A program made the translations under genes and the position numbers. A DNA stretch of 64,000 nucleotides, taken from a virus. A model generated the notes under the pieces. The model had not been told where the DNA came from, searched no databases, and saw only the letters and a list, made by a program, of their open reading frames with translations. Location: IMG/VR virus record IMGVR_UViG_3300023112_001138, positions 1 to 64,000 of that record; one strand, given 5' to 3'. This document shows positions 213-44,035 of the stretch, piece after piece. Each line of letters opens with the position of its first letter. Within the stretch, counting starts at the first letter, position 1.

Positions 213-1022
213 ATGAGACCAAGAAATGTATTAACAGAAACAAACAATATGAGAAAGTTAATGGGATTACCATTGCTTAATGAGGACACAGGATCAACTG
301 CTGAGGACGTTAAAAAGAAAGTTTTAAATGAATCTACGATAGAATATGAAAATAACCAATGGTTGGTTATAGAAAAAGAAGATGAGGAACAAGAAGAAGA
401 TGAGGAACAAGAAGAAGATGAGGAACAAGAAGAAGATGAGGAACAAGAAGAAGAAGATGAGGATGTGGTTGAAGAACAAGAAGATTTAGGTGATGGTGAA
501 GATGGTATGGGAGAATCTCCATTGGATCAGGTTGTCGCAGAAGGTAGTTTCGCTAAATATAACATTTCTTTAGGGGATAAAGTTGGTTTACTGAGTGAAC
601 AAGAAACTGAAGTACAAACGTTGAATCGGCATGCAAGAGAATTAGATGATATACTGGACATAGAGGAAGAAAATAGAGAATTAGATGATATACTGGACAT
701 ATTGGAATATGAGGTGGAACAAGCAAAAAATAAAAAATCCGCTCGTAAATCAGAGATAAAAGGAATATTAAAAAAAATAAGAGGAAATAGAAAATTAAAA
801 AAAGTAATTAATAAGAAAGGTAAAAAATTAAATCAATTAGCAAACCAACTAGATGATTTAGAAGATACGGAGGCGTTTAAAGAAAAAAGAAAAAAAATTA
901 TTAGGGATATCTTCTTATCATTATATATGGGTATTGGTGCAATTGTGGTAGGATCTAGTGCTGAGGATATAAAAAATAAAATTAAATTTGGTAGGGAGAA
1001 GGTAAATAAACTTTTTAACTAG
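213..1022 (+). CDS. Acidic putative internal head protein with MRKLMG-type leader
   Basis: 269-aa ORF; leader MRPRNVLTETNNMRKLMGLPLLNE; E/D-rich tract; ATATTTATA at 188-196. Confidence 0.6.
   Translation: MRPRNVLTETNNMRKLMGLPLLNEDTGSTAEDVKKKVLNESTIEYENNQWLVIEKEDEEQEEDEEQEEDEEQEEDEEQEEEDEDVVEEQEDLGDGEDGMGESPLDQVVAEGSFAKYNISLGDKVGLLSEQETEVQTLNRHARELDDILDIEEENRELDDILDILEYEVEQAKNKKSARKSEIKGILKKIRGNRKLKKVINKKGKKLNQLANQLDDLEDTEAFKEKRKKIIRDIFLSLYMGIGAIVVGSSAEDIKNKIKFGREKVNKLFN
378..449 (+). repeat. 18-bp tandem repeat x4 (GAAGATGAGGAACAAGAA; EDEEQE)
   Basis: Four perfect in-frame copies; also a 27-bp duplication (RELDDILDI) at 636-662 and 675-701. Confidence 0.9.
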
Positions 1023-3516: not shown

Positions 3517-4755
3517 ATGGAACATAAAAAAAGAATAAACGAAACGAATTTTATGCGGAGAATGATGGGGTTACAACCTATCAACGAAGGAATTGGTGTA
3601 GATGCTGTTGATCAAGAGCAAATGCAACTAGTAAGTAATGTAATGACACCGGATGGGGCTACTGTTGCTGGTATTAGTACAGTAGCATTTAAAGATTCTG
3701 ATGAAGGTAGAGAATGGATGTCAGGAGACAAAAAAGAATTATCTGGAGAAAGATTAAAAAATGCTACTCAGCAAACTTTAGACACTGATAAAAAAATAGG
3801 TGGTTGGAAAATTAAAGATCAGGGTGATGCGATAACTATTGAAGATAAAAGGGGTGTATTTTTCAGGGTAGATACAGTTACGAAGGGGAACCCTAACTGG
3901 GCATATGTTGCCACACCTTCATCAAATTACGATGGATATGATAATAAGGACGAAGATTTCATTGATGGTATCGGTCAATCATTTCAAACATATGAGGAAT
4001 ATGCAACTTGGATAAGAGAAATATTATCTAAATATTCACCTAGTGTTGTGGGAACTACAAAACCTAAAATAGGTAAATTTGTGTGTAAAAGAGATTTAGA
4101 TTTCAATTGGTTTTTTGATGAGTTAAAAATTGGTGAAGATTATCTAAAAAAAGGTGATTGTGGTGTAGCAGTTGAGGTGGCTCAAGATCATATAAACGAG
4201 TATGAAGGTTCTGAAGTAATAAAAGTTGATGGTAAATATGGTACCGATACTATTAGTCAAGTTAAAGTGGTACAAGCTGAATTAGACGATGTTAAAGCTG
4301 ATGGTTATTACGGACAAAAAACATACGAAGCAATAGTTAAAGCACTTTGGGATGATATGGAAAGAATAACCCCAAAACCACCTAAAATGATTGACACTGA
4401 TATTGACACTGATATTGACACTGATATTGACACTGATATTGACACTGATATTGACACTGATATTGAATCAGATTTTGATTTTGATAGAGATGTTAAAGGA
4501 GGCGGTGCTATCCCCAATATAGATATAGAAGATTTTGAAGCGGTTGAAGATGAGTTTGAGAAAAAAGCTAAGGCTAAGGCAGAAAAACGAAGTAAAAAAG
4601 GTAAACGAAAACTTAATAGAATAAATAAAAGAAGTTCTAAACTTAAGAAAAGGTATAATTTTGAAGAACAAAAAACTTTTAAAGTTAAAAAGAATGGTAA
4701 AGTAATTACATTAACTGAAAGTGATGTTAAAAAAATTATTAACCTAAAAAAATAA
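3517..4755 (+). CDS. Peptidoglycan-binding domain protein with an N-terminal leader and a C-terminal LTES tag
   Basis: LKKGDCGVAVEVAQ...VDGKYGTDT...ADGYYGQKT; N-terminus MRRMMGLQPINE; C-terminus KVKKNGKVITLTESDVKKII. Confidence 0.7.
   Translation: MEHKKRINETNFMRRMMGLQPINEGIGVDAVDQEQMQLVSNVMTPDGATVAGISTVAFKDSDEGREWMSGDKKELSGERLKNATQQTLDTDKKIGGWKIKDQGDAITIEDKRGVFFRVDTVTKGNPNWAYVATPSSNYDGYDNKDEDFIDGIGQSFQTYEEYATWIREILSKYSPSVVGTTKPKIGKFVCKRDLDFNWFFDELKIGEDYLKKGDCGVAVEVAQDHINEYEGSEVIKVDGKYGTDTISQVKVVQAELDDVKADGYYGQKTYEAIVKALWDDMERITPKPPKMIDTDIDTDIDTDIDTDIDTDIDTDIESDFDFDRDVKGGGAIPNIDIEDFEAVEDEFEKKAKAKAEKRSKKGKRKLNRINKRSSKLKKRYNFEEQKTFKVKKNGKVITLTESDVKKIINLKK
4390..4466 (+). repeat. 12-bp tandem repeat x6 (ATTGACACTGAT; IDTD)
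   Basis: Six perfect in-frame copies plus a partial copy. Confidence 0.95.
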
Positions 4756-18415: not shown

Positions 18416-19798
18416 ATGTCTAAAAATTTATCAGAAGAAAGAATTAGGATGAGAAAACTTATGGGGTTTACCTATGAGGATAATTCTCATGATGTATTGG
18501 CGGAACAGAATATTGGTAAATCTATAATTTCTGAACAGGGGGAAAAAGAAGAAGTTGGAGGAGAAGATTGTGTCACTATTAGTCATGTAGGGAGATTCCC
18601 AGTGGATGGTATTGCAGGGTCCGGTGCATTTACAACGTTTATGGATAAAATAGAGACCACTATTAAAGGTAATGCTAAATTAGCGGATAAAATTACAAAA
18701 GGTTTTGTATATGTAACAGATTTTAGTCTTATTGGTGGCGCAAGTAATCATTATGAGGGTCATTCTGTGACACCTGAAAAAAATAATGACCGTAAAAGTG
18801 ATTATAGTGGACAAGATTATACTGAAGATAATAAGTCATCTCACTTTAAGAAAAATAAAGAATTATCAGTAAATCGAGCTAAAGGTTTGGCAGATGAATT
18901 AAACGGGGAGGATGGATTAAAACGTATTAATGTTCAATTCGATGAGGGTATTTTAGATAATGCTAAAAATAACGCACAAGGATATATTATAGATACAGGG
19001 GGAATTAATGATAAACCTAATAAATCAAGCTGGACAATTAATGGTGTAACATACCAACCCGGTCAAGTAGTTGAAGTTAGTATGACTATTTGTTACCAAT
19101 CAGAAAAACAGGAGGAAAATCCTGAAACAGGAACCACAGAAACGGTAATAACCAAAGAACAGGTAACAGTACTAAAAAAGTGTTTTAATGGTGCCACAAT
19201 TAAAGTAATTTATGACCCAAAAGATCTGAAGAAAAGAGGGCTTCCAGACCATAGTTGTAATAAAGCAGTTTATGATATATGGGCAAATGGTTATAAGATA
19301 AAAAGAACACCAACGTTAGATTACGCTAGTTTAAATAATAAAGGGTATTTAGATGATGCTGAGAAAGAAGGGCGGAAAAGGATAAATACGTTTACTTTAG
19401 AGATAGATGGGGTAAATAGTGAGTTCTTTAATGAGGATATTATAGGTAAACATAGTGGAAGATTAGTGATTACGGCAGCATGTAGGAAGACAAAAGCAGG
19501 GAAATGGAGATCAAAAACGTGGAAGTTAAATGGAAAGAAAATGGATCCAAGTGACTGTCATTATGGCGTAGGGAAAATAATAGTAGATACCGCTGAAGGA
19601 ACCGACTCTAAAGTAGTGGTAACACCTAGTATGTGGGGAGTAGAGAAAAATGTTGCAGAATTTCCAGCTTGTGAAAATATAATTACTGAGTTAATGACTG
19701 ATAAACCTAAAGTTATAGAAAAAATAAAAACTTGGTGGAAAAAAATAAATAGTAAATCGGATAAGGAAGAAACAAAAAAAGAAGTAACAAGATTCTAA
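18416..19798 (+). CDS. MRKLMG-leader protein with an OmpA-like peptidoglycan-binding motif
   Basis: MSKNLSEERIRMRKLMG; GGASN...NKELSVNRAKGL resembles the OmpA_C motif N-x2-LS-x2-RA. Confidence 0.55.
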   Translation: MSKNLSEERIRMRKLMGFTYEDNSHDVLAEQNIGKSIISEQGEKEEVGGEDCVTISHVGRFPVDGIAGSGAFTTFMDKIETTIKGNAKLADKITKGFVYVTDFSLIGGASNHYEGHSVTPEKNNDRKSDYSGQDYTEDNKSSHFKKNKELSVNRAKGLADELNGEDGLKRINVQFDEGILDNAKNNAQGYIIDTGGINDKPNKSSWTINGVTYQPGQVVEVSMTICYQSEKQEENPETGTTETVITKEQVTVLKKCFNGATIKVIYDPKDLKKRGLPDHSCNKAVYDIWANGYKIKRTPTLDYASLNNKGYLDDAEKEGRKRINTFTLEIDGVNSEFFNEDIIGKHSGRLVITAACRKTKAGKWRSKTWKLNGKKMDPSDCHYGVGKIIVDTAEGTDSKVVVTPSMWGVEKNVAEFPACENIITELMTDKPKVIEKIKTWWKKINSKSDKEETKKEVTRF

Positions 19799-25349: not shown

Positions 25350-25754
25350 ATGAAAAATAATATAACAATAATATTAACACTACTATCTTTAAACCTAATA
25401 GGTCAGATAAACTATGATGTATATAGGGTAGTTGCTCACAGCAATGAAATGTATGTGCATTCAATTTCAAACACAATTAAAGTACCCCAAGAACATGCTA
25501 TATTTGTTCCAAATGTATTCTCACCTAATAATGACGGAATAAATGATTATTTCCGGGTGATGGGTAAAGGTTTAGATCATATTACAATCGAAATATATAA
25601 TAGATGGAGTCAACAAGTATTCGAAGCACCTCACTTAACAGAGATTTGGGATGGGACATACCGAGGTAAACAATGCCCCATCGGAACATATGTATACCAA
25701 CTTAAAATAGATAAAAAAATATCCCATTCAGGGACAGTAACATTAATAAGATGA
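25350..25754 (+). CDS. Signal peptide plus gliding-motility-associated (T9SS type B, CHU_C) C-terminal domain
   Basis: IFVPNVFSPNNDGINDYF...IYNRW...WDGT...GTYVY...GTVTLIR; signal peptide ends LIG-Q. Confidence 0.85.
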   Translation: MKNNITIILTLLSLNLIGQINYDVYRVVAHSNEMYVHSISNTIKVPQEHAIFVPNVFSPNNDGINDYFRVMGKGLDHITIEIYNRWSQQVFEAPHLTEIWDGTYRGKQCPIGTYVYQLKIDKKISHSGTVTLIR

Positions 25755-25843
25755 AAGAAGTAGTAATATTTAGTTGGGTATTTGCAGGTGTTATATGTGT
25801 TTATGCGTATTATGTTAAACATAAGAAAAACCAAAACAATTAA
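25751..25843 (+). CDS. 30-aa single-TM micropeptide, not in ORF track
   Basis: MKEVVIFSWVFAGVICVYAYYVKHKKNQNN*; ATGA overlap with the upstream gene. Confidence 0.45.
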   Translation: MKEVVIFSWVFAGVICVYAYYVKHKKNQNN

Positions 25844-25918
25844 ATCACCATTAAATAATTAATTTCCCCAATAACTTTAATTTAATAATTAATGTGAGTA
25901 TTTATTATAAAAATACTT

Positions 25919-27122: not shown

Positions 27123-29018
27123 ATGAGAAAATTTACAAACCCAAAAACTCTAAAAGGTCAAGATAAAATCAATAGGATTACTGATCTAATGAGTAGAATG
27201 ACAACACTAAATGAAAGTACTTCACTTTCAGAAATAGATTTCATAAAAAAGGGACCAAATGGAATTGTTTATGGTATTATTAGAGAAAATCATAACTACT
27301 TTATTAAAACAACTGAAAAAACATCTGGAACATTAATTGCAGAAGATTTTGAATACGTTGGTGGTGCTAAAAATAAATACATTGAAAGGTATAATACATA
27401 TACTGAAGCATTAAAACAATTAAATATGAAATTTGATATGTTGAATGAGTCATATGGTATTGAAGTGGGATCAAATCTTTTTGAATCCGATGGTCATGAG
27501 ATTCAGGTATCCAACGCTAGTGGGGTAGTAGTTAAAGAGACTAAGGTTTCTGACCCCGATAATGATGATGATGGTAAATTAGAGTTAATAAATGATGAAG
27601 AGGAAGATGTTGAAGAACAAAAGCAAGTAATTAGGGTAAAAACACCAAAAGCGCCAGTAGAAGATACAGTAGAGGTAGATGAATTTGCGATGGATGATAT
27701 GGAAACTGCTGAAGGTGGTGGAGAAGACCCATTCGCTGCTGAAGATGGTGGAGAAGGAATGGATGATGAAGGAATGGATGATGAAGGAATGGATGATGAA
27801 GATGGGGACGAAACAACCAAAAAGATACAAAAACTTACTGGAAAAGTCACACAACTAATGAGAGATATGGATGACCCTGATTCGGAGTTAGATAAATACG
27901 TCATTAACTCAGTTATTTCAGCAATTGATTTTGAAGAAATGGATGAGGAAGATGTTGAAGATGTTATTGCTAAGATTGAGGGTGAAGATGAAGAAGCTGG
28001 AGAAGGTGATGAATTTGATACGGAAGAGGTTGATGTTGATTTAGATGTAGAAGAAGTTCCTGAAGGTGAACCGTCAGAAGATCAAATTACTGAAGATTCT
28101 GAAGGTAGGGAAACTTTTGACTATGGTGAGGATGAAGGTCACGACCATAAAGAAGAAGAAGATTTAAAAGAGAAAGAAGAAATGTCACCACAAGATAGGA
28201 TTAGTGAAATAAAAAAACATCTTGAAGCCCTTGAGTCTGATATGTCTTATGATGAAGACCATGAAGATAGAGAAGAAGAAGGTACCGAATTTAACGAATC
28301 AAGGTCATTTTCCAAAAAACAATTAATGGAAACATTTTTAAGAAAAAATGTTAAAAATTCACTAAAAAAAGTTTTAAAAGAAAACCACTCAATGTGTGAA
28401 GAATGTTTGGGGGAAGGTTGTGAGTCTTGTATGGGAGAACATCATAATTTGTCAGATACTAATTATGGTAAATATAATAGAAATGAATATATGTTAGAAG
28501 ATGACGATATGGATATGTTGGCTGGGGATGATGTACATGAAGATATAGATTATATGGATACTGAAATGTTAGGACAAGATGTTTTATACCGAACCGGAGA
28601 AGAACCTAAATTTGATAGGGATGGTGATGGTATATCTAATGAGTATGATGTAGATAGTAACGATGATGGTAGTATAGATTACGGAATGGGTAATAAAATG
28701 TATGATTGGCCAGAACGCACTTTTGGTAGAAAGGGTGATAGGGATTCTGACGGTATCCCAAATACAAACGATGACAATCCTGGAACACCTAGTTGGGAAG
28801 ATGACGGAGATGATTTTATAGAAATAGATTTTGAATCGTTGATGGGAAATGCTCCGGTTAAAGAACCGGGTGTCGCACCACCAACAACTACACCAAGTAC
28901 CACACCAGGTAAACCAAGATGGAAAAAAATTAGGAAACCTGAACCAGGTACACAGGGAAAACCTAAAGCAGAAGTAGCAAGAAGAAAAGCTACTATACGA
29001 AAAGGAAGAATGTATTAA
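27123..29018 (+). CDS. Large acidic putative head core protein with DxDxDG repeats and a Pro-rich C-terminus
   Basis: Start moved to ATG 27123; leader ...KINRITDLMSRMTTLNES; DRDGDGISN, DRDSDGIPN; EGMDD x3; CEECLGEGCESC. Confidence 0.65.
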   Translation: MRKFTNPKTLKGQDKINRITDLMSRMTTLNESTSLSEIDFIKKGPNGIVYGIIRENHNYFIKTTEKTSGTLIAEDFEYVGGAKNKYIERYNTYTEALKQLNMKFDMLNESYGIEVGSNLFESDGHEIQVSNASGVVVKETKVSDPDNDDDGKLELINDEEEDVEEQKQVIRVKTPKAPVEDTVEVDEFAMDDMETAEGGGEDPFAAEDGGEGMDDEGMDDEGMDDEDGDETTKKIQKLTGKVTQLMRDMDDPDSELDKYVINSVISAIDFEEMDEEDVEDVIAKIEGEDEEAGEGDEFDTEEVDVDLDVEEVPEGEPSEDQITEDSEGRETFDYGEDEGHDHKEEEDLKEKEEMSPQDRISEIKKHLEALESDMSYDEDHEDREEEGTEFNESRSFSKKQLMETFLRKNVKNSLKKVLKENHSMCEECLGEGCESCMGEHHNLSDTNYGKYNRNEYMLEDDDMDMLAGDDVHEDIDYMDTEMLGQDVLYRTGEEPKFDRDGDGISNEYDVDSNDDGSIDYGMGNKMYDWPERTFGRKGDRDSDGIPNTNDDNPGTPSWEDDGDDFIEIDFESLMGNAPVKEPGVAPPTTTPSTTPGKPRWKKIRKPEPGTQGKPKAEVARRKATIRKGRMY

Positions 29019-29420: not shown

Positions 29421-29939
29421 ATGAAAAAGAAAGTTAAGATATTTGGTAAGGAAATTAAGCGGGCAACCAGACGTAAATTAATGGAGAATGTTATGGAAAA
29501 CTGGGAAATGAAGGACACTTACAGTAAAAAGAAATATAAACAAACCCCTAGAGAAGGTGGTATTGAGAATGTATTTGGTCAATATGCTGAAGATATGGAT
29601 CCTGCGGTAATTAGATACATGAGAAAAAATCCCGATGCGATTCTAAGAAGAATGGCTAAGTTGTATCCAGAAATTTATATGAGACACCTACCAGAACAAT
29701 CACCAGTTATGGATGATTGGGAATTTGAAGAAAAAGGGGTAGACATAGTAGATGAAACATACTATGGTTTTGAAAACTCTGGAGATATACCTAGTAATTT
29801 CAAACCAGAACAAGATGACACAGTAAAAGTGGGTCCAAATGCAGTTAAAACAGAAAGTAAGATTAAAACTGTAACAGTTAATGAAATTAAAAAAATGTTA
29901 GGTAGAAAATCAAAAAAGAAGAATAAATTTAGAAGATAA
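29421..29939 (+). CDS. Hypothetical protein
   Basis: 172-aa ORF with basic termini; C-terminal VNEIKKMLG. Confidence 0.6.
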   Translation: MKKKVKIFGKEIKRATRRKLMENVMENWEMKDTYSKKKYKQTPREGGIENVFGQYAEDMDPAVIRYMRKNPDAILRRMAKLYPEIYMRHLPEQSPVMDDWEFEEKGVDIVDETYYGFENSGDIPSNFKPEQDDTVKVGPNAVKTESKIKTVTVNEIKKMLGRKSKKKNKFRR

Positions 29940-34222: not shown

Positions 34223-36019
34223 ATGGATAGAGCAGAAAAATTAAAAATATACGCACGTTGTTTAGGTGACCCTACATATGCAATTGAAACGTTTTTGAAA
34301 ACATATGATTTAACACAAAAAGGATTTGTTCCCTTTAAGTTATATATTAAACAAAAAAAAATAATAGAATCATATGAAAACCACAATAGAAATATTGTTA
34401 CTAAACCTCGTCAGGCAGGTGTATCTACTACTACTGCTGCATATATCGCAGTAAAAATTGCTTTCGGTGACCCTAATAACCCTTGGAAAGTATTGGTATT
34501 AGCAAATAAACAAACTTTAGCCCAAGAATTTCTTAAAAAAATAAAAGATTTTTTAGATCAAATGCCTGCATGGGTATGGGGAGTAAAAGAAGGTGACTCA
34601 TATTTAGATATTGAAGCTAAGGGACATATAAAAACAAAGGGCACAAAATGTGAGGTTAAAGCTTTGGCAACATCTAAAGATGCTCTTAGGGGGTATACCC
34701 CTACATTCTTAATAATGGATGAAGCTGCGTTTATCGATAATGGTGCTGAGGTATTTGGTGCTGCATTAACCTCTTTGGGTACTGGTGGTAAGGTAACGTT
34801 AATATCAACACCTAATGGGCAAGATGCGTTATATTATAGAACGTATGACGGTGCAAAGAAAGGGGACAATAATTTTAAAATTATTGAAATGAGGTGGCAT
34901 GAAGATATAAGATATAATAGAAATTTAAGGTGGTTAAGGGGTGAGGAAGAAATAATTGTTTGTGAAAGTATCGGTAGAGAAAAATTAAGATGGGAATATA
35001 GTGGTAACACATATGAAACTGATAGTATCCACATAGATGATTACACTATAATGGTTAAAGATGGATGGAAAGCATCCTCCCCATGGTATGAAGAAATGTG
35101 TAGGGATATGAATGGGGATAAAAAACAAATAGCCCAAGAATTAGATGTGTCATTTGTTAGTTCTGGTGGTAACGTTATAGATGATGAATATATCGAATAC
35201 CAAAACGATAATTATGTTAAAGAACCAAAATATATGGCAGAAATGGAAAAATCTATGTGGATATGGAAAGAACCAGAAGAGGGTCATAAATATATTATGG
35301 GTGTGGATGTATCTAGAGGAGATGGAAAAGATAGTTCCACTATAGTAATATTAGATTTTGATGGTTTAGAACAGGTTGCAGAATTTCAATATAAACTACC
35401 ACCTGATTTATTAGCGGAAATAGTTTATAAGTATGGTAATCTTTATCAAGCATATACTGTTGTAGATATAACTGGTGGTATGGGGGTTTCTACAGTAATG
35501 AAACTTCTAGAAATGGGTTATAAATATCTTCATTATGATGACCCTAAAAGTAGAAGCTTAAGTGAAAAATACGCAAAAAGTGTATATAAACAAGGTGATA
35601 AGGTTCCAGGTTATAATGTAGGGAACACAAGGTTACAAATGGTTAGTGATTTAGAAGAGCATGTAAGAGAAAGTAAAACAATTATTAGATCAGTTAGATT
35701 GATTTCTGAATTAAAGACTTTTGTGTATAGAAATGGTAGGCCAGATCATATGGATGGGTATCATGATGATATAATTATGGCATTGGCAATGCCAATATTT
35801 ATTGTACAAACAACATTTAAAAAATTAAAAGCCATAGAAAAACAAACAAAAGCAATGTTAGATAGTTGGGTTACTGTGTCTAGTGGTAATGAAACAGATA
35901 AAATAGATAAACCCCACGTTAACCCTTTTTATACTAACACCCCAACGTATCACCCAAAAGAGGCATCTAACGGAAATAATGATAAAGGTGAATTTAATTG
36001 GTTATTTGGGATTAGATAA
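34223..36019 (+). CDS. terL: Terminase large subunit (T4 gp17-like)
   Basis: KPRQAGVST Walker A; LIMDEAAF Walker B; ISTPNG; GVDVSRG and HDDIIMALA nuclease motifs. Confidence 0.95.
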   Translation: MDRAEKLKIYARCLGDPTYAIETFLKTYDLTQKGFVPFKLYIKQKKIIESYENHNRNIVTKPRQAGVSTTTAAYIAVKIAFGDPNNPWKVLVLANKQTLAQEFLKKIKDFLDQMPAWVWGVKEGDSYLDIEAKGHIKTKGTKCEVKALATSKDALRGYTPTFLIMDEAAFIDNGAEVFGAALTSLGTGGKVTLISTPNGQDALYYRTYDGAKKGDNNFKIIEMRWHEDIRYNRNLRWLRGEEEIIVCESIGREKLRWEYSGNTYETDSIHIDDYTIMVKDGWKASSPWYEEMCRDMNGDKKQIAQELDVSFVSSGGNVIDDEYIEYQNDNYVKEPKYMAEMEKSMWIWKEPEEGHKYIMGVDVSRGDGKDSSTIVILDFDGLEQVAEFQYKLPPDLLAEIVYKYGNLYQAYTVVDITGGMGVSTVMKLLEMGYKYLHYDDPKSRSLSEKYAKSVYKQGDKVPGYNVGNTRLQMVSDLEEHVRESKTIIRSVRLISELKTFVYRNGRPDHMDGYHDDIIMALAMPIFIVQTTFKKLKAIEKQTKAMLDSWVTVSSGNETDKIDKPHVNPFYTNTPTYHPKEASNGNNDKGEFNWLFGIR

Positions 36020-36072: not shown

Positions 36073-38010
36073 ATGGCAAAAAAAACAATATTTCAACAGT
36101 TAGGAGACTTATTTGGTCCTGAGATAAGTCAGAAACAAAGTAAATCCAGATATTCATTAGGTAATGAAGAATTACTTAAAACACAATCTAAAGAAGAATA
36201 CGATCATAAAAAGTTGCAAATGCAACAAAATAAATATCTTTCTGATATGTGGTCTAAGGTTGATAATGAGATATATCAGCACTCGATATATTATGAAACT
36301 ACACGATTAGCTTCATATGCAGATTTTGAAGGGATGGAATTTTTCCCAGAGATAGCAGCGGCATTAGACATTTTTATGGAAGAATCTACAACTCAAAACG
36401 GGGAAGGTAGAATTTTAAACATATTTTCAGAAAGTAAAAGAGTTAAAAGAATATTACAAGACCTATTTTTTAATAGGTTAGATATACACACAAATTTACC
36501 TATGTGGGTAAGAAACACATGTAAATACGGTGACAATTTTTTATTTTTAAATATAGATGGTGAAGAAGGTATAACCAACGTAAAACAATTACCCAATATA
36601 GAAGTAAGTAGAAAAGAGAATGATGGGTTCGGTGAAAATTCTAGTCTTGAAACTGAGGATAAATTTAACCCAGTTAAATTTGTATGGAGTAATAAGGATA
36701 TAGAATTTAATGCTTGGCAAATAGCACATTTTAGATTATTGGGTGATGATAGGAGATTACCTTATGGTACGTCAGTATTAGAAAAAGCGAGAAGAATTTG
36801 GAAACAATTACTTCTATCTGAAGATGCAATGTTAATATATAGAGTAACTAGGGCACCAGAAAGAAGGATATTTAAAATATTTGTTGGTAATATCGATGAG
36901 GCAGATGTTCCAGCATATATTAATAAAATTGCAGATAACTTTAAAAGAAGTCCAGTTATAGATCAAAAAACAGGTCAAATAGATACTAGATATAATCAAA
37001 TGGCTCAAGATCAGGATTATTTTATACCTGTTAGAGACCCTAACGCCCCTAGCCCCATAGATACTCTTCCTGGTGCAACTAACTTATCAGAAATTGCAGA
37101 TATACAATACCTACAGAAAAAATTGTTTACAGCTCTTAGAGTACCTAAACCATTTTTGGGTTTCGAGGAGGTGACTGGTGAAGGTAAAAATTTAGCACTA
37201 CAAGATATTAGATTTTCAAGGACAATAAATAGAGTACAACAATCGATAATACAAGAATTAAATAAAATCGCAATTATTCATTTATATGTTTTAGGATTAG
37301 AAGATGAATTAGAAAACTTTACGTTGTCACTTAACAACCCTTCTACTCAAGCGGATATGTTAAAAACTGAACAAACTCAATTGAAGGTAACTCTTTATAA
37401 GGATGCAGTATCAGATGCAGGTAACGGTTTTGGTGCGTATTCTATGACTAGAGCTAAAAGAGATATTTTAGGGATGAGTGAAGAAGAAATAAGAAATGAT
37501 TTAGAACAACAAAGAATGGAAAAAGCTGCATCTGCAGAAATGGAACAAACTTCTACTATAATTAAGAAGACTGGTATATTTGATAGGGTAGATACTTTAT
37601 ATGGTGAATTCGGTACAACACCAACTAACGCAGCTGGTGAAGAAGGTGGTGATGACATGTCCGGTGGAGATGAATCATTCGGTGGTGGGTCAGACTTTGG
37701 TGGTGGCGGGTCAGACTTTGGTGCTGAAATGGAAGGTGGTGCAACCGCAGAAGCGGGAGCTGAAGCTGGTGCAGCAGAAGCACCGGTAGAATCTACAAAT
37801 AAGAAAGGTGATTTAATAGTAGAGGAAAATAAATCCAAACTAACTAATAAAACCAAAAAATATCAAAACATTTATTTAAAAAGATTAATTGAGAGTATAG
37901 ATAACGATCAAAACATAATTAATGTGGATAATGGTGTAGAAAGCATAAATTCTAAGATCGAACAAATGTCAAAAGAGATAGATGGTTTAATACGAGACGA
38001 AGAAAAATAG
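36073..38010 (+). CDS. Portal protein (T4 gp20-like)
   Basis: PEIAAALDI; PYGTSVLE; EDAMLIYRVTRAPERRIFKIFVGN; IDTLPGATNL; YLQKKLFTALRVPK. Confidence 0.95.
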   Translation: MAKKTIFQQLGDLFGPEISQKQSKSRYSLGNEELLKTQSKEEYDHKKLQMQQNKYLSDMWSKVDNEIYQHSIYYETTRLASYADFEGMEFFPEIAAALDIFMEESTTQNGEGRILNIFSESKRVKRILQDLFFNRLDIHTNLPMWVRNTCKYGDNFLFLNIDGEEGITNVKQLPNIEVSRKENDGFGENSSLETEDKFNPVKFVWSNKDIEFNAWQIAHFRLLGDDRRLPYGTSVLEKARRIWKQLLLSEDAMLIYRVTRAPERRIFKIFVGNIDEADVPAYINKIADNFKRSPVIDQKTGQIDTRYNQMAQDQDYFIPVRDPNAPSPIDTLPGATNLSEIADIQYLQKKLFTALRVPKPFLGFEEVTGEGKNLALQDIRFSRTINRVQQSIIQELNKIAIIHLYVLGLEDELENFTLSLNNPSTQADMLKTEQTQLKVTLYKDAVSDAGNGFGAYSMTRAKRDILGMSEEEIRNDLEQQRMEKAASAEMEQTSTIIKKTGIFDRVDTLYGEFGTTPTNAAGEEGGDDMSGGDESFGGGSDFGGGGSDFGAEMEGGATAEAGAEAGAAEAPVESTNKKGDLIVEENKSKLTNKTKKYQNIYLKRLIESIDNDQNIINVDNGVESINSKIEQMSKEIDGLIRDEEK

Positions 38011-40118: not shown

Positions 40119-40811
40119 ATGTTAGAAATATTAAAGAGTAATGAAGTAAATAAAAAAGGTATTCTTGTAGAATACGATTCAGGATACATCTCTCCAAAAG
40201 ATAATAAACATTTTATTAATGAGGTAAATAAATTAACCAAGGGTGGAACAATAGTTGAAACTCCTTTGGTTGTTTATGCTGTAATGCAGAAATATGGTGT
40301 TGAGAATAAGAACGAAAGGATATACCCTGAAAATATTTTAAGAAGAGAAGCAGAAAACTACCTTAAACTAATTAACGAAAGAAGAGCAATGGGTGAGGCA
40401 GATCACCCGGAGAGTTCAATAGTATCGATAAGTAGGATTTCACATAATGTCACAGAATTATGGTGGGAGGGAAATGTCCTAATGGGGAAATTAGAAATTA
40501 TAATGTCACCAGGATTTGTCAACCAAGGGATTATTTCTTGTGAAGGAGATTTAGTTGCTAATTTACTACGTAATAATTTAAAGATGGGTGTATCTTCTAG
40601 AGGTGTAGGTTCCCTGGAGAAGGAGCATGGTAAAAATATAGTTCAAGATGACTTTGAATTAATATGTTGGGATGTGGTAACATCACCGTCAACTCCCGGT
40701 TCTTGGATATATAATAGAGAACCAAGTAAGGAAGAACAAATGGCAGAATCTAAAGATAATTCTGATAAGAATTTACTTATTGGTTCTTTAGATGATTTTT
40801 TATGTGACTAA
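40119..40811 (+). CDS. Prohead core protease (T4 gp21-like)
   Basis: NKNERIYP; GEADHP; RISH; GVSSRGVGS; WDVVTSPSTPG; ATATTTATT at 40094-40102. Confidence 0.93.
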   Translation: MLEILKSNEVNKKGILVEYDSGYISPKDNKHFINEVNKLTKGGTIVETPLVVYAVMQKYGVENKNERIYPENILRREAENYLKLINERRAMGEADHPESSIVSISRISHNVTELWWEGNVLMGKLEIIMSPGFVNQGIISCEGDLVANLLRNNLKMGVSSRGVGSLEKEHGKNIVQDDFELICWDVVTSPSTPGSWIYNREPSKEEQMAESKDNSDKNLLIGSLDDFLCD

Positions 40812-40922: not shown

Positions 40923-42251
40923 ATGGCTACAAAAAGAAAATCAATCATCGAAGAGGCTTTGCTAGAAGCTAAGTCTTTAGAGGATGCCTTAAAAGCCAAT
41001 ACGAAAGAAATACTTGCCACTCATATGAAGCAAGAAATTGAGAGTATCGTAGAGTCGTCTCTGAAAGAAGAAGACGAAGAATTTGAAATCGATATAGAAG
41101 GGTCCGATGAAAATGAGGATGGAATGTCAGTTGACGATGTTGTAACTGGAGATGATTCTGAAGAACTAATTAATTTAGATGCATTTACTGCAGATGAAGA
41201 AGGTGACGCAGAATTGGAATTAGATCTTGATCTTGATTTACCTGATGACGGTGAAGAGTCAGATATTGATGTTTTGGAATTACCTATGGATTTATTAGGT
41301 GGTGATGAAATAGATTTAACTGGTGCACCCGATGATGAAGTACTTAAAGTTTTCAAAGCAATGAGCGATGATGACGAAGTAGAAGTAATCAAAGATGAAT
41401 GTGGAATTCACTTAACAGATAACGAAACAGGTGCTGAGTATTACATTAAGGAAAGTATGGAAGAACTGGATGGAATGGCAGAAGGTTGTGATGACTCTTT
41501 GGAAGAAGGTTGTGAAGAATTGGAAGAAGAAACCATTTATGAAATAGAAATGGATGATCAAGGATACGATGATAAAGAAGATGAATCTTTAGGTATGAGG
41601 ACCGGTAAGGAACTTGAAGAAGAAGAATCATATTCAGATCGTAGAGAAGATTCTTACGGAAAATGGGGGGATCGTGACGATGAATCTTTGGAAGAAGATC
41701 ATACACTTGCTAGGACTAAAGGATACCAAAGAAAAGGTGGACATAGAAATAGGCAAGAAGAATCTCGTAAACCACGTAAACCAATCTCTGAAAGGAGAAA
41801 TTCACGTAAACCAATCTCTGAAAGGAGAAAAACACCTAAGAATGTAAGCAAAGTAGCTGACTCTAAAATAATGAAAGAATACAAAGAACTTAAGAGTAAA
41901 AATGAAGAATACAAAGGAGCTCTTAACGTATTCAAAGATAAACTTAATGAAGTTGCTTTATTCAATACAAATTTAGCATACGTAAATAGATTGTTTACTG
42001 AACACTCTACCACTAAAAAAGAAAAAATGAGCATCTTAAAGAGGTTCGATGAAGCTGATAGTGTTAAAGGTTCTAAATCTATTTATAAAACTATTAAATC
42101 AGAATTGGATCGTAAATCACCAATTACTGAATCAGTAGAGAAGAAAGTAAACAGAACTGTTAAGTCATCGGCTTCAGATTTAAACGAATCTACAGCATAT
42201 GTAGATCCACAAATCGTAGCGATTAAAGATTTAATGAAAAGGATATCATAA
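40923..42251 (+). CDS. Prohead core/scaffold protein (functional equivalent of gp22)
   Basis: Lies between protease and capsid genes; acidic and coiled-coil; many (I/L)-x-E sites; C-terminal DPQIVAIKDLMKRIS; ATATTTATT at 40847-40855. Confidence 0.8.
   Translation: MATKRKSIIEEALLEAKSLEDALKANTKEILATHMKQEIESIVESSLKEEDEEFEIDIEGSDENEDGMSVDDVVTGDDSEELINLDAFTADEEGDAELELDLDLDLPDDGEESDIDVLELPMDLLGGDEIDLTGAPDDEVLKVFKAMSDDDEVEVIKDECGIHLTDNETGAEYYIKESMEELDGMAEGCDDSLEEGCEELEEETIYEIEMDDQGYDDKEDESLGMRTGKELEEEESYSDRREDSYGKWGDRDDESLEEDHTLARTKGYQRKGGHRNRQEESRKPRKPISERRNSRKPISERRKTPKNVSKVADSKIMKEYKELKSKNEEYKGALNVFKDKLNEVALFNTNLAYVNRLFTEHSTTKKEKMSILKRFDEADSVKGSKSIYKTIKSELDRKSPITESVEKKVNRTVKSSASDLNESTAYVDPQIVAIKDLMKRIS
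41774..41830 (+). repeat. 27-bp direct repeat (RKPISERR x2) in the scaffold gene
   Basis: ACGTAAACCAATCTCTGAAAGGAGAAA twice, 30-bp period. Confidence 0.85.
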
Positions 42252-42283: not shown

Positions 42284-44035
42284 ATGGGACATTTATTAAA
42301 CTCAGGTGAAGTCGGAAATATCGGACTTGAACACTTGAAACAAATAAGATCTAAAACTATTTCGAAGTGGAACAAAATTGGTTTCCTAGAAGGTTTAAAA
42401 GGTCACGTAAGAGAGAACATTGCTCAGTTATATGAAAACCAAGCATCGGCTCTTTTAAACGAATCTACGAGTTCAAACTCATCAGGTTCATTCGAAACAG
42501 TTGTTTTTCCAATTGTAAGGAGAGTATTCTCTAAATTATTGGCTAATGACATCGTTTCAGTACAAGCTATGAATATGCCGATTGGTAAATTATTCTTCTT
42601 TGTACCGAAAACAACTGGTAGGAATCATGCAGCCTTAAACGGACCAGCATTGTCAAATCAGGAATGTGTATTTTCAGCTTGTGGTGGTAACACACTATCA
42701 GTATTTCAAGAAAAGAATCTTTATGATATCTTTTATAATGATGGATTATTTGATGCGTCTAAAGGACAATCAACACTATTTTCGGATGGTGGAATTGATC
42801 CAGTTATCTTAAGTGCAAACGGAGAATCCGTTTCAACAATATTTGCTGATCAACCTTTAGCGGCTGATGGTAGTATGAGAAATTTAACTTTCTGTATTAC
42901 TGGATTTACTGGTACAGGTGCTGGTAGAATGGTTGGTGCAGATGGTAATGAAATGGATACTGAGGCTTTCTTAGCTTCATTACACATAGTAAATGGTTCT
43001 GACCCAATTATGGCTGGTGACGGTAGTGGTAATGTAGTTATTGCAGCCAATGCTAACGTACCATTTAGATTAGTAGCACAAAAATATGGAAAAGGTATTG
43101 TCGATTACGGTGATATTTGTACTCCAGCAGGTTGTTTACTAGTTGAAGTGGATCTTACAACACCAGCTTGTGTTAGTTGTAGTGCTAATACCTTCGATGG
43201 TTACATTGGTGGTAGTGACGCAACAACATCAGCGGCAACATTCAGTGTAAACTGGATGACATATGCATCTTTAGAATATGCAACTGAAATGGGTGAGGTA
43301 TCATTCGAACTTGATGAAGTTGTTGTTTCTGTAACAGAGAGAAAGTTGAGAGCAACTTGGTCTCCTGAACTAGCACAAGATGTTAGTGCATTCCATAACA
43401 TTGATGCTGAAGCTGAATTAACGGCTTTATTATCTGAACAAGTAGCAGCTGAAATCGACAGAGAGATTCTTAGAGATTTAAGAGTAGGTGCAGCTTGGCA
43501 ATTGAGATGGGATTACAATGGTTGGAAACGAACTGCTAGTGGTGGTTTCAACGCTTACACTCAAAAAGAGTGGAATCAAACGTTGATTACTAAAATTAAT
43601 CAGTTATCAGCTCAAATTCATAAATCAACTCTAAGGGGTGGTGCTAACTTCGTAGTAGTATCTTCTGAGATATCAGCTATTTTTGATGACTTAGAATACT
43701 TCCACGTATCAAATGCGGCTCCAGAGCAAGATCAATACAACATGGGTATTGAGAAAGTAGGTTCATTAGGAGGACGTTACACAGTGTATCGTGACCCTTA
43801 CGCACCAGCTAACTCAATAATTGTTGGACATAAAGGAAAATCGTTATTGGATACTGGGTACATTTATGCACCTTACGTACCATTACAATTGACTCCAACG
43901 TTACAAAACCCATTCAACTTCGCACCAACGAAGGGGATAATGACAAGATACGCTAAGAAAATGGTTAATAACCGTTTCTACGGAGCGTTGACTGTTGATG
44001 GTGTTGTTACATTTGACATCAATGAGTTGAGATAG
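42284..44035 (+). CDS. Major capsid protein (T4 gp23-like)
   Basis: PIVRRVF...VSVQAM; RKLRATWSPELAQD...AFHNIDAEAEL; EIDREI; YAPYVPL; GIMTRY. Confidence 0.97.
   Translation: MGHLLNSGEVGNIGLEHLKQIRSKTISKWNKIGFLEGLKGHVRENIAQLYENQASALLNESTSSNSSGSFETVVFPIVRRVFSKLLANDIVSVQAMNMPIGKLFFFVPKTTGRNHAALNGPALSNQECVFSACGGNTLSVFQEKNLYDIFYNDGLFDASKGQSTLFSDGGIDPVILSANGESVSTIFADQPLAADGSMRNLTFCITGFTGTGAGRMVGADGNEMDTEAFLASLHIVNGSDPIMAGDGSGNVVIAANANVPFRLVAQKYGKGIVDYGDICTPAGCLLVEVDLTTPACVSCSANTFDGYIGGSDATTSAATFSVNWMTYASLEYATEMGEVSFELDEVVVSVTERKLRATWSPELAQDVSAFHNIDAEAELTALLSEQVAAEIDREILRDLRVGAAWQLRWDYNGWKRTASGGFNAYTQKEWNQTLITKINQLSAQIHKSTLRGGANFVVVSSEISAIFDDLEYFHVSNAAPEQDQYNMGIEKVGSLGGRYTVYRDPYAPANSIIVGHKGKSLLDTGYIYAPYVPLQLTPTLQNPFNFAPTKGIMTRYAKKMVNNRFYGALTVDGVVTFDINELR

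Follow-up and report, generated by a model that had tools for sequence, protein, structure and literature searches.

Short peptides at the ends of otherwise unrelated proteins direct those proteins into viral or virus-like shells in several described systems, and we compared these systems with an arrangement of terminal peptides in a 64,000-nucleotide stretch of viral DNA (positions 1 to 64,000 of IMG/VR record IMGVR_UViG_3300023112_001138; hereafter, the window). The elements in question are the C-terminal tail of a putative prohead scaffold (core) protein of 442 amino acids (aa; 40923..42251, + strand) and a class of N-terminal leaders, termed type C, that open several other open reading frames (ORFs) of the window, which are referred to here by their first nucleotide. 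The source of the window is an uncultured giant T4-like phage with a T4-like head module. In encapsulins, a short terminal peptide on unrelated cargo docks inside an HK97-fold shell, but those peptides are not cleaved, and there is no scaffold protein or protease. In phage T4, the capsid targeting sequences (CTS) of IPI-III and Alt, which gp21 removes, resemble the type C leaders in being short N-terminal leaders on unrelated proteins followed by (L/I)-x-E, and the window's genome likewise encodes an S77 gp21-type protease together with gp20- and gp23-like head genes; by analogy, the proposed role, the loading of variable cargo into the prohead, would also be the same. However, T4 CTS show no sequence resemblance to the window leaders, and the likeness would be functional and not one of homologues. 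They differ further in that the window leader appears to repeat the scaffold's C-terminal helix, which would point to a receptor, and in that the window-type tag also occurs as a C-terminal tail, with several leader classes present on many proteins. The S77 prohead protease and the herpesvirus protease are both members of one broad assemblin-like group.

In herpesviruses, the scaffold and the protease precursor end in a common tail, which attaches to the major capsid protein and which assemblin removes at the M site (PMC12474303). As in the window's scaffold (where the evidence is a sequence motif), about 20-25 residues follow the final protease site, at which cleavage frees the scaffold, and the protease is a second protein bearing the tail, its ticket into the procapsid. 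The herpesvirus tail is, however, shared through in-frame overlapping genes and is always C-terminal, whereas the copies described here lie on separate, unrelated genes and are mostly N-terminal. The scaffold protein (SP) of phage 80alpha and CpmB of SaPI1 have a common C-terminal helix-and-hook that sits on the capsid N-arm, where the two compete for one site (PMC5644958), and in this case, too, two different proteins carry a short, conserved terminal amphipathic helix. CpmB differs in being the size-redirecting scaffold of a satellite and not cargo, in lacking an N-terminal version of the helix, and in that the helix is not released through an adjoining cut site.

Scaffold tails and leaders across lineages

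We found that N-terminal leaders occurring naturally on putative cargo proteins reproduce the C-terminal helix of the scaffold and change along with it, a relationship on which our literature search found no paper. The motif, its terminal position, the protease-type sites flanking it, its conservation and its co-variation between lineages were all observed, and we consider it very probable that leader and scaffold tail are one shared tag. To the whole statement, that this shared tag docks and that its receptor is the capsid protein, we assign a probability of roughly 0.45.

The strongest result came from comparison across lineages, in which tail and leader were near-identical in sequence. The cultured Flavobacterium phage vB_FspM_immuto_3-5A (immuto) has a capsid protein that is 42% identical to that of the window over its C-terminal half, and the ORF directly upstream of its capsid gene (immuto35A_203; MW353176.1 125582-126823) matched residues 325-401 of the window scaffold (E 1.3e-9). 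Judged by position and homology, this gene, annotated as a 'DNA polymerase phi-like protein', is the head scaffold. It ends in SEQVSRWQKLAGIIK, i.e. I-I-S-E↓V-S-E-Q-V-S-R-W-Q-K-L-A-G-I-I-K (arrows mark predicted cut sites here and below), and two unrelated small immuto proteins, the products of ORFs 25470-25865 and 111631-112095, begin with MKKQILSEQFRRMQKLAGIITE, i.e. M-K-K-Q-I-L-S-E-Q-F-(R/K)-R-M-Q-(K/F)-L-A-G-I-I-T-E↓S. When the last 20 residues of the immuto scaffold were compared with all six-frame ORFs of its genome, the best non-self match was the N-terminus of an unrelated 154-aa protein (11 of 14 residues identical, E 0.003), and the second leader came next.

We also searched IMG/VR with a degenerate DNA pattern for R-M-Q-K-L-A-G-I-I, which occurred in at least 120 stretches, of which we read 80. 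In these 80 loci, the motif stood at the C-terminal end of an ORF in 65 and in an N-terminal leader in 15, and was never found in the interior. The 65 C-terminal copies lay 0-4 residues before the stop codon of ORFs that were mostly 300-500 aa long, and 56 of them had a gp23-like gene within 1.5 kb downstream. In the 15 leaders, the motif began 5-11 residues after an upstream Met (6-11 residues from the initiator in 14, the frame being open further upstream at the other locus) and was followed directly, without exception, by the sequence motif I-x-E; the 13 leader-bearing proteins long enough to be compared formed 12 unrelated clusters. As the shared core is L-M-(G/S) in the window's clade and L-A-G-I-I in immuto and these 80 loci, leader and tail change together between lineages. 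Two of the loci (L197 and L199) contain ORFs of about 220 aa that end S-I-N-E↓S-F-T-R-M-Q-K-L-A-G-I-I-K and have no downstream capsid gene; these are non-scaffold proteins bearing the exact scaffold tail as a C-terminal tag.

A tail of this kind also ends the syntenic ORF of a second cultured phage besides immuto, Microcystis phage Mel-JY01. Its sequence there is L-N-E↓S-N-N-V-V-E-R-M-K-K-L-A-G-I-V-K, and it was the top match of our leader hidden Markov model (HMM) in the whole Mel-JY01 proteome. What stands out very clearly in such related lineages is present in the window in a diverged and weaker form.

The scaffold tail and type C leaders of the window

The scaffold ORF lies between a gene for a T4 gp21-like prohead protease (40119..40811, + strand; Pfam Peptidase_S77, E 3.8e-22) and one for a gp23-like major capsid protein (42284..44035, + strand; Pfam Gp23, E 4.5e-72). 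Its product had no Pfam, PHROG or PDB match, and its hhalign comparison with T4 gp22 was not significant; we assigned it as the scaffold because of its position, acidic composition, many (L/I)-x-E sites and homologues, of which 78 were found in syntenic positions in related loci, and the fold model was in keeping with this assignment. In an AlphaFold2 model run on a 40-sequence alignment, the protein is laid out as a helix (residues 3-52), disordered acidic stretches, a small beta unit and then a conserved helical domain (pLDDT above 90 at residues 306-397). R-K-P-I-S-E-R-R is duplicated in tandem (41767-41832) within a disordered basic stretch.

The C-terminal end of the scaffold consists of LNE↓S followed by TAYVDPQIVAIKDLMKRIS (nt 42180-42248; stop codon, 42249-42251), so that the last predicted cut site, a 20-aa tail (STAYVDPQIVAIKDLMKRIS) and the stop codon together occupy 42180..42251 (+ strand). 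This cut site and another, ITE↓S, fall in a disordered linker (residues 398-428; 42114..42206, + strand; pLDDT below 50 at residues 403-421), and the proposed docking helix follows as a terminal amphipathic helix (residues 429-441; 42207..42245, + strand; pLDDT about 82). The predicted structure thus has an amphipathic helix at the extreme C-terminus of the scaffold, on a flexible tether. Residues E403, E422 and S423 were invariant or nearly so across 40 scaffolds, and the sequence motif (L/I/M/V/T)-x-E↓(S/N/K) was present upstream of the conserved tail in 78 of 78 relatives. Most of these tails read R-M-K-D-L-M-(S/G)-K. In relatives at a greater distance, whose capsid proteins are about 58-62% identical, it is L-I-E↓S-K-T-Y-E-N-P-Q-F-L-R-M-K-D-L-M-(S/T/G)-K-(I/L)-K, which is nearer to the leader core R-M-R-K-L-M-G than is the window's own tail. 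The tail was well conserved, but residues 337-387 of the scaffold were more so.

The first-pass annotation of the window had likened the scaffold's C-terminal helix to the leaders of four ORFs and to a helix closing a fifth, and all of the strings it quoted were present at the coordinates it gave. The leaders of ORFs 213-1022 (213..284; 24 aa, core N-M-R-K-L-M-G, ending LNE↓D; the tail HMM described below scored 5.1 bits on this N-terminal segment), 3517-4755 (3517..3588; 24 aa, core F-M-R-R-M-M-G, ending INE↓G) and 27123-29018 (27123..27215; 31 aa, core R-I-T-D-L-M-S-R, ending LNE↓S) have a canonical (L/I)-x-E site 4-6 residues past the motif. The leader of ORF 18416-19798 (18416..18505; core R-M-R-K-L-M-G) has its first such sites behind residues 30 (LAE↓Q) and 40 (ISE↓Q), which puts them 14 and 24 residues past the motif. 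All four leaders are on the + strand, and the bodies of the proteins behind them are mutually unrelated. The ORF 18416 protein had no homologue in five related large contigs, whereas seven orthologues of ORF 27123 had invariant residues L10, G12 and R18. In the 27123 family, the invariant leader is accompanied by a conserved domain of small size and by a long low-complexity region of acidic composition, and the family may represent a second core or scaffold-like protein. The fifth string, NEIKKMLG near the C-terminal end of ORF 29421-29939 (29880..29903, + strand), scored only 4.6 bits and is followed by a further 11 residues, which are basic, and we rejected this doubtful member as too weak to be a C-terminal tag.

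We then weighed how far the window alone supports the resemblance. An HMM built from 45 distinct tails out of the 78 related scaffolds was searched against the 127 window ORFs, and the leaders of 27123 (its best N-terminal match, 10.0 bits), 213 and 18416 ranked 3, 6 and 15, with E-values of 0.2-7.5. Several observations weigh against reading tail and leaders as a shared docking tag. These E-values are not significant among 127 ORFs, and the leader of ORF 3517 was outside the top 30; the overlap between tail and leader in the window's phage amounts to five or six residues, (I/M)-(K/R)-(D/K)-L-M; the window's tail has Ala where its relatives have Arg, and lacks the Gly; and the leaders have nothing equivalent to the conserved Y-x-(D/N)-P found at the tail's start. 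When the last 16 scaffold residues were searched by within-genome BLAST in the 11 contigs of the uncultured clade, no leader was retrieved, and a single C-terminal tag was (in related contig G009, E 0.025). Sub-clades of the uncultured group, compared with one another, gave no sign of co-variation of tail and leader, no clear type C leaders were found in the Mel-JY01 proteome, and in T4 neither the gp22 nor the gp21 tail resembled any N-terminus. The short overlap, the non-significant E-values and the empty BLAST search would be expected if the likeness in the window's lineage were a chance one between generic basic amphipathic helices in an AT-rich proteome, with leaders that are independent of the tail. 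We regard this as very unlikely, as the more distant relatives' tail reads R-M-K-D-L-M-G against a leader core of R-M-R-K-L-M-G, and identical 9-mers occur at both places in related lineages.

The statistics at the level of the family also bear on chance likeness. Ten related large contigs were fetched, one of them complete at 296 kb, and these carry type C-like leaders of the form E-E-I-x-R-M-K-x-L-(M/F)-G, followed by (L/I)-x-E, on many unrelated proteins. Our first leader profile was circular because the pattern that seeded it in part matches the tail too, and a second was regrown with N-termini only from the three seeds of the first-pass annotation (strict HMM iteration from these seeds did not extend, and a relaxed first round was used). 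The regrown profile gave the tail a local score of 12.8 bits, compared with 7.7 +/- 1.6 bits for column-shuffled tails (p = 0.01; with the first, circular profile, p = 0.0005). A profile of another leader class of the window, type A, did not match the tail (p = 0.53 by column shuffles), and this specificity for type C argues against chance. With the first, partly circular profile, hhalign aligned tail and leaders at 82% probability over 13 columns, and the leader core slid along the scaffold family profile placed the tail first of 430 windows. Among 24,264 windows from 85 family profiles, the first profile placed the tail at rank 2 and the regrown profile placed it at rank 5, and the top window in both runs was the C-terminal tail of another family. 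Several unrelated windows scored about equal to the tail with the non-circular profile, which favors chance likeness.

Enrichment at protein ends speaks against chance likeness. The tail HMM matched N-terminal 30-residue segments 4.3 times more than interior ones (odds ratio, OR, 4.3; p 2e-7, a value that, like the other enrichment p-values, is inflated by homologues across contigs, a redundancy that the reversed controls carry equally), and for the C-terminal segments of proteins other than scaffolds the excess over interior ones was 3.7- to 10-fold. The leader HMM, trained on N-termini only, was 3 to 5.5-fold enriched at non-scaffold C-termini. These enrichments vanished when the profiles were reversed: the reversed tail HMM gave an OR of 1.6 at N-termini and 1.2 to 2.1-fold overall and was not significant at thresholds of at least 4 bits, and the reversed leader HMM was not significant at thresholds of at least 5 bits. 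Enrichment at protein ends therefore depends on residue order. The search of N-termini with a scaffold-tail profile, which the first-pass annotation had proposed as a check, was accordingly borne out in part, in the N-terminal enrichment and in the ranks of three of the four leaders, and not in the E-values or for ORF 3517. The resemblance between scaffold helix and leaders held at the family level and in related lineages, and not inside the window taken alone, where it is short and not significant. The broader claim of the first-pass annotation, that cargo proteins reuse the scaffold's helix as a cleavable address tag, was strongly supported by the comparisons insofar as type C leaders and tail are very probably the same kind of tag, given the conservation in all 78 relatives, the tethered helix model and the co-variation between lineages, and was not supported for the 29421 example.

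Proposed docking site and cleavage

We propose that the last 13-20 residues of the scaffold form a tethered amphipathic docking helix with the core basic-(M/I)-(K/R/Q)-x-L-(M/A)-(G/S), and that type C leaders would be copies of this helix relocated to the N-terminus of unrelated proteins. During prohead assembly, leaders and tail would dock at one common site inside the shell, most likely on the inner face or the N-terminal arm of the gp23-like capsid protein, and this shared docking would result in tagged proteins being built into the prohead alongside the scaffold. The gp21-like protease would cut the adjoining (L/I/V)-x-E site, which follows the helix in leaders and precedes it in the scaffold. 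Such cleavage would sever body from anchor, allowing the scaffold to leave and setting the cargo free within the head. A shared cleavable docking tag is well supported by the sequence comparisons, from which we infer docking and cleavage, and the most likely receptor is the capsid protein, on the precedent of P22, 80alpha and herpesviruses. For T4, it has been proposed that gp23 turns its N-terminal region towards the core (PMC9546572).

It is also possible that the tag is shared but that its receptor is the scaffold core, in which case the tail would join scaffold subunits or bind another core protein, and leaders would enter the same groove, such that cargo co-polymerises with the core, which is what is presumed to happen with T4 CTS. 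This is a serious rival because reviews of T4 assign targeting leaders an affinity for core proteins (PMC9026906, PMC3012670) and not for the shell (PMC9026906), which speaks against a capsid-protein receptor. The helical domain at residues 306-397, which is highly conserved and confidently folded, would be a possible receptor, and the 27123 family couples a leader to an acidic, scaffold-like body. However, in all of the structurally resolved cases cited here, the terminal helix of the scaffold touches the capsid protein, and we consider a core receptor rather unlikely.

The position of the motif, about 0-12 residues from a protease-type site (14 residues to the first canonical site in ORF 18416), would also be consistent with the helix being an exosite of the prohead protease, recruiting the enzyme to the adjoining (L/I/V)-x-E site and carrying no packaging address, and the protease itself carries a related C-terminal tail. 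This reading is difficult to reconcile with the helix preceding the scissile bond in leaders but following it in tails, with the lack of a helix at the numerous further predicted sites of the scaffold body and the capsid propeptide, and with the separability of targeting and processing residues in T4. We judge an exosite to be improbable, and both it and lineage-specific chance to be less likely than a scaffold-core receptor.

Reviews of T4-type CTS offer only core affinity, whereas a leader that repeats the scaffold's terminal helix names a concrete candidate, the partner of the scaffold tail, and this candidate can be tested with peptides. The arrangement has its clearest form in a cultured phage, immuto, for which Flavobacterium sp. 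LMO8 serves as host, and is thus experimentally accessible. It would link phage cargo loading, the tail of herpesvirus scaffold and protease, mimicry by CpmB and encapsulin peptides as one principle, and it hints that the heads of giant phages in the environment are loaded with large, exchangeable protein repertoires, cell-wall enzymes among them. Tentatively, we extend the proposal to a large clade of far-T4 phages of Bacteroidota and cyanobacteria, in which the scaffold's capsid-docking helix might double as a portable loading tag at either protein end, with cargo, protease and scaffold competing for one site on the capsid protein and with tag sequence and copy number setting the load. If this holds, the receptor logic of T4-type capsid targeting sequences would be identified, and proteins might be loaded into phage heads with a minimal tag of only 9-14 residues.

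Neighboring genes and other terminal tags

The protease has a conserved C-terminal tail in its last 13 residues (nt 40770-40808), which may be its ticket into the prohead. In more distant relatives this tail is S-L-D-L-M-K-K-L-N-D-Y-L-G, with D-L-M-x-K-L in common with the scaffold tail, and in the window's group it is N-L-L-I-G-S-L-D-D-F-L (pattern L-L-x-x-L-D-x-F-L); T4 gp21 ends A-E-A-M-K-K-A-L. Related C-terminal tags were also seen on other proteins. An M23 peptidase (L154:3072-3716) ends L-N-E↓E-L-K-R-I-K-K-L-L and its neighbor ends E-E-V-K-R-M-K-K-L-M-S-L, and a conserved family of about 150 aa ends (L/V)-T-E↓S-L-K-R-I-N-x-(I/L)-M-x-K. The body of ORF 3517-4755 in the window contains a peptidoglycan-binding domain (PG_binding_1 match; endolysin-type PHROGs), and this protein and the M23 peptidase are likely packaged cell-wall enzymes. 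That two tagged proteins are cell-wall enzymes or binders fits packaged, ejected cargo.

A strong type C leader match (17 bits) was found in the interior of one 423-aa ORF of a related contig (G001, 117830-119101), at residues 314-329, where it stands directly after K-K-K-M and before L-N-E↓Q. It could reflect translation from an internal start codon, a gene fusion or the junction of a polyprotein.

Other genes of the head module are those for the terminase (34223-36019) and a gp20-like portal (36073-38010; Pfam Portal_T4, E 1.7e-75). Residues 1-60 of the capsid protein (42284-42463, + strand) form a putative propeptide ending ALLNE↓S, which is presumed to be its cut site by analogy to T4 gp23. 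The window makes up 64 kb of a 74-kb IMG/VR contig with 30% G+C, and the estimated completeness of 23% implies a giant phage. The product of a small ORF (25350-25754) has a signal peptide as well as a C-terminal sorting domain of the gliding type, with the motif F-x-P-N-x-F-S-P-N-x-D-G-x-N-D, which fits a Bacteroidota host.

Type A leaders (M-K-K-I-I-R-L-T-E-S-D-L-T-R-I-V-K-R...) open the window ORFs 1285, 12964, 15405, 16535 and 33335. The type A family is far larger than type C, at 63 distinct N-termini across the window and related contigs G001-G010. Being unlike the scaffold tail, its leaders show no match to it, and they may use another receptor.

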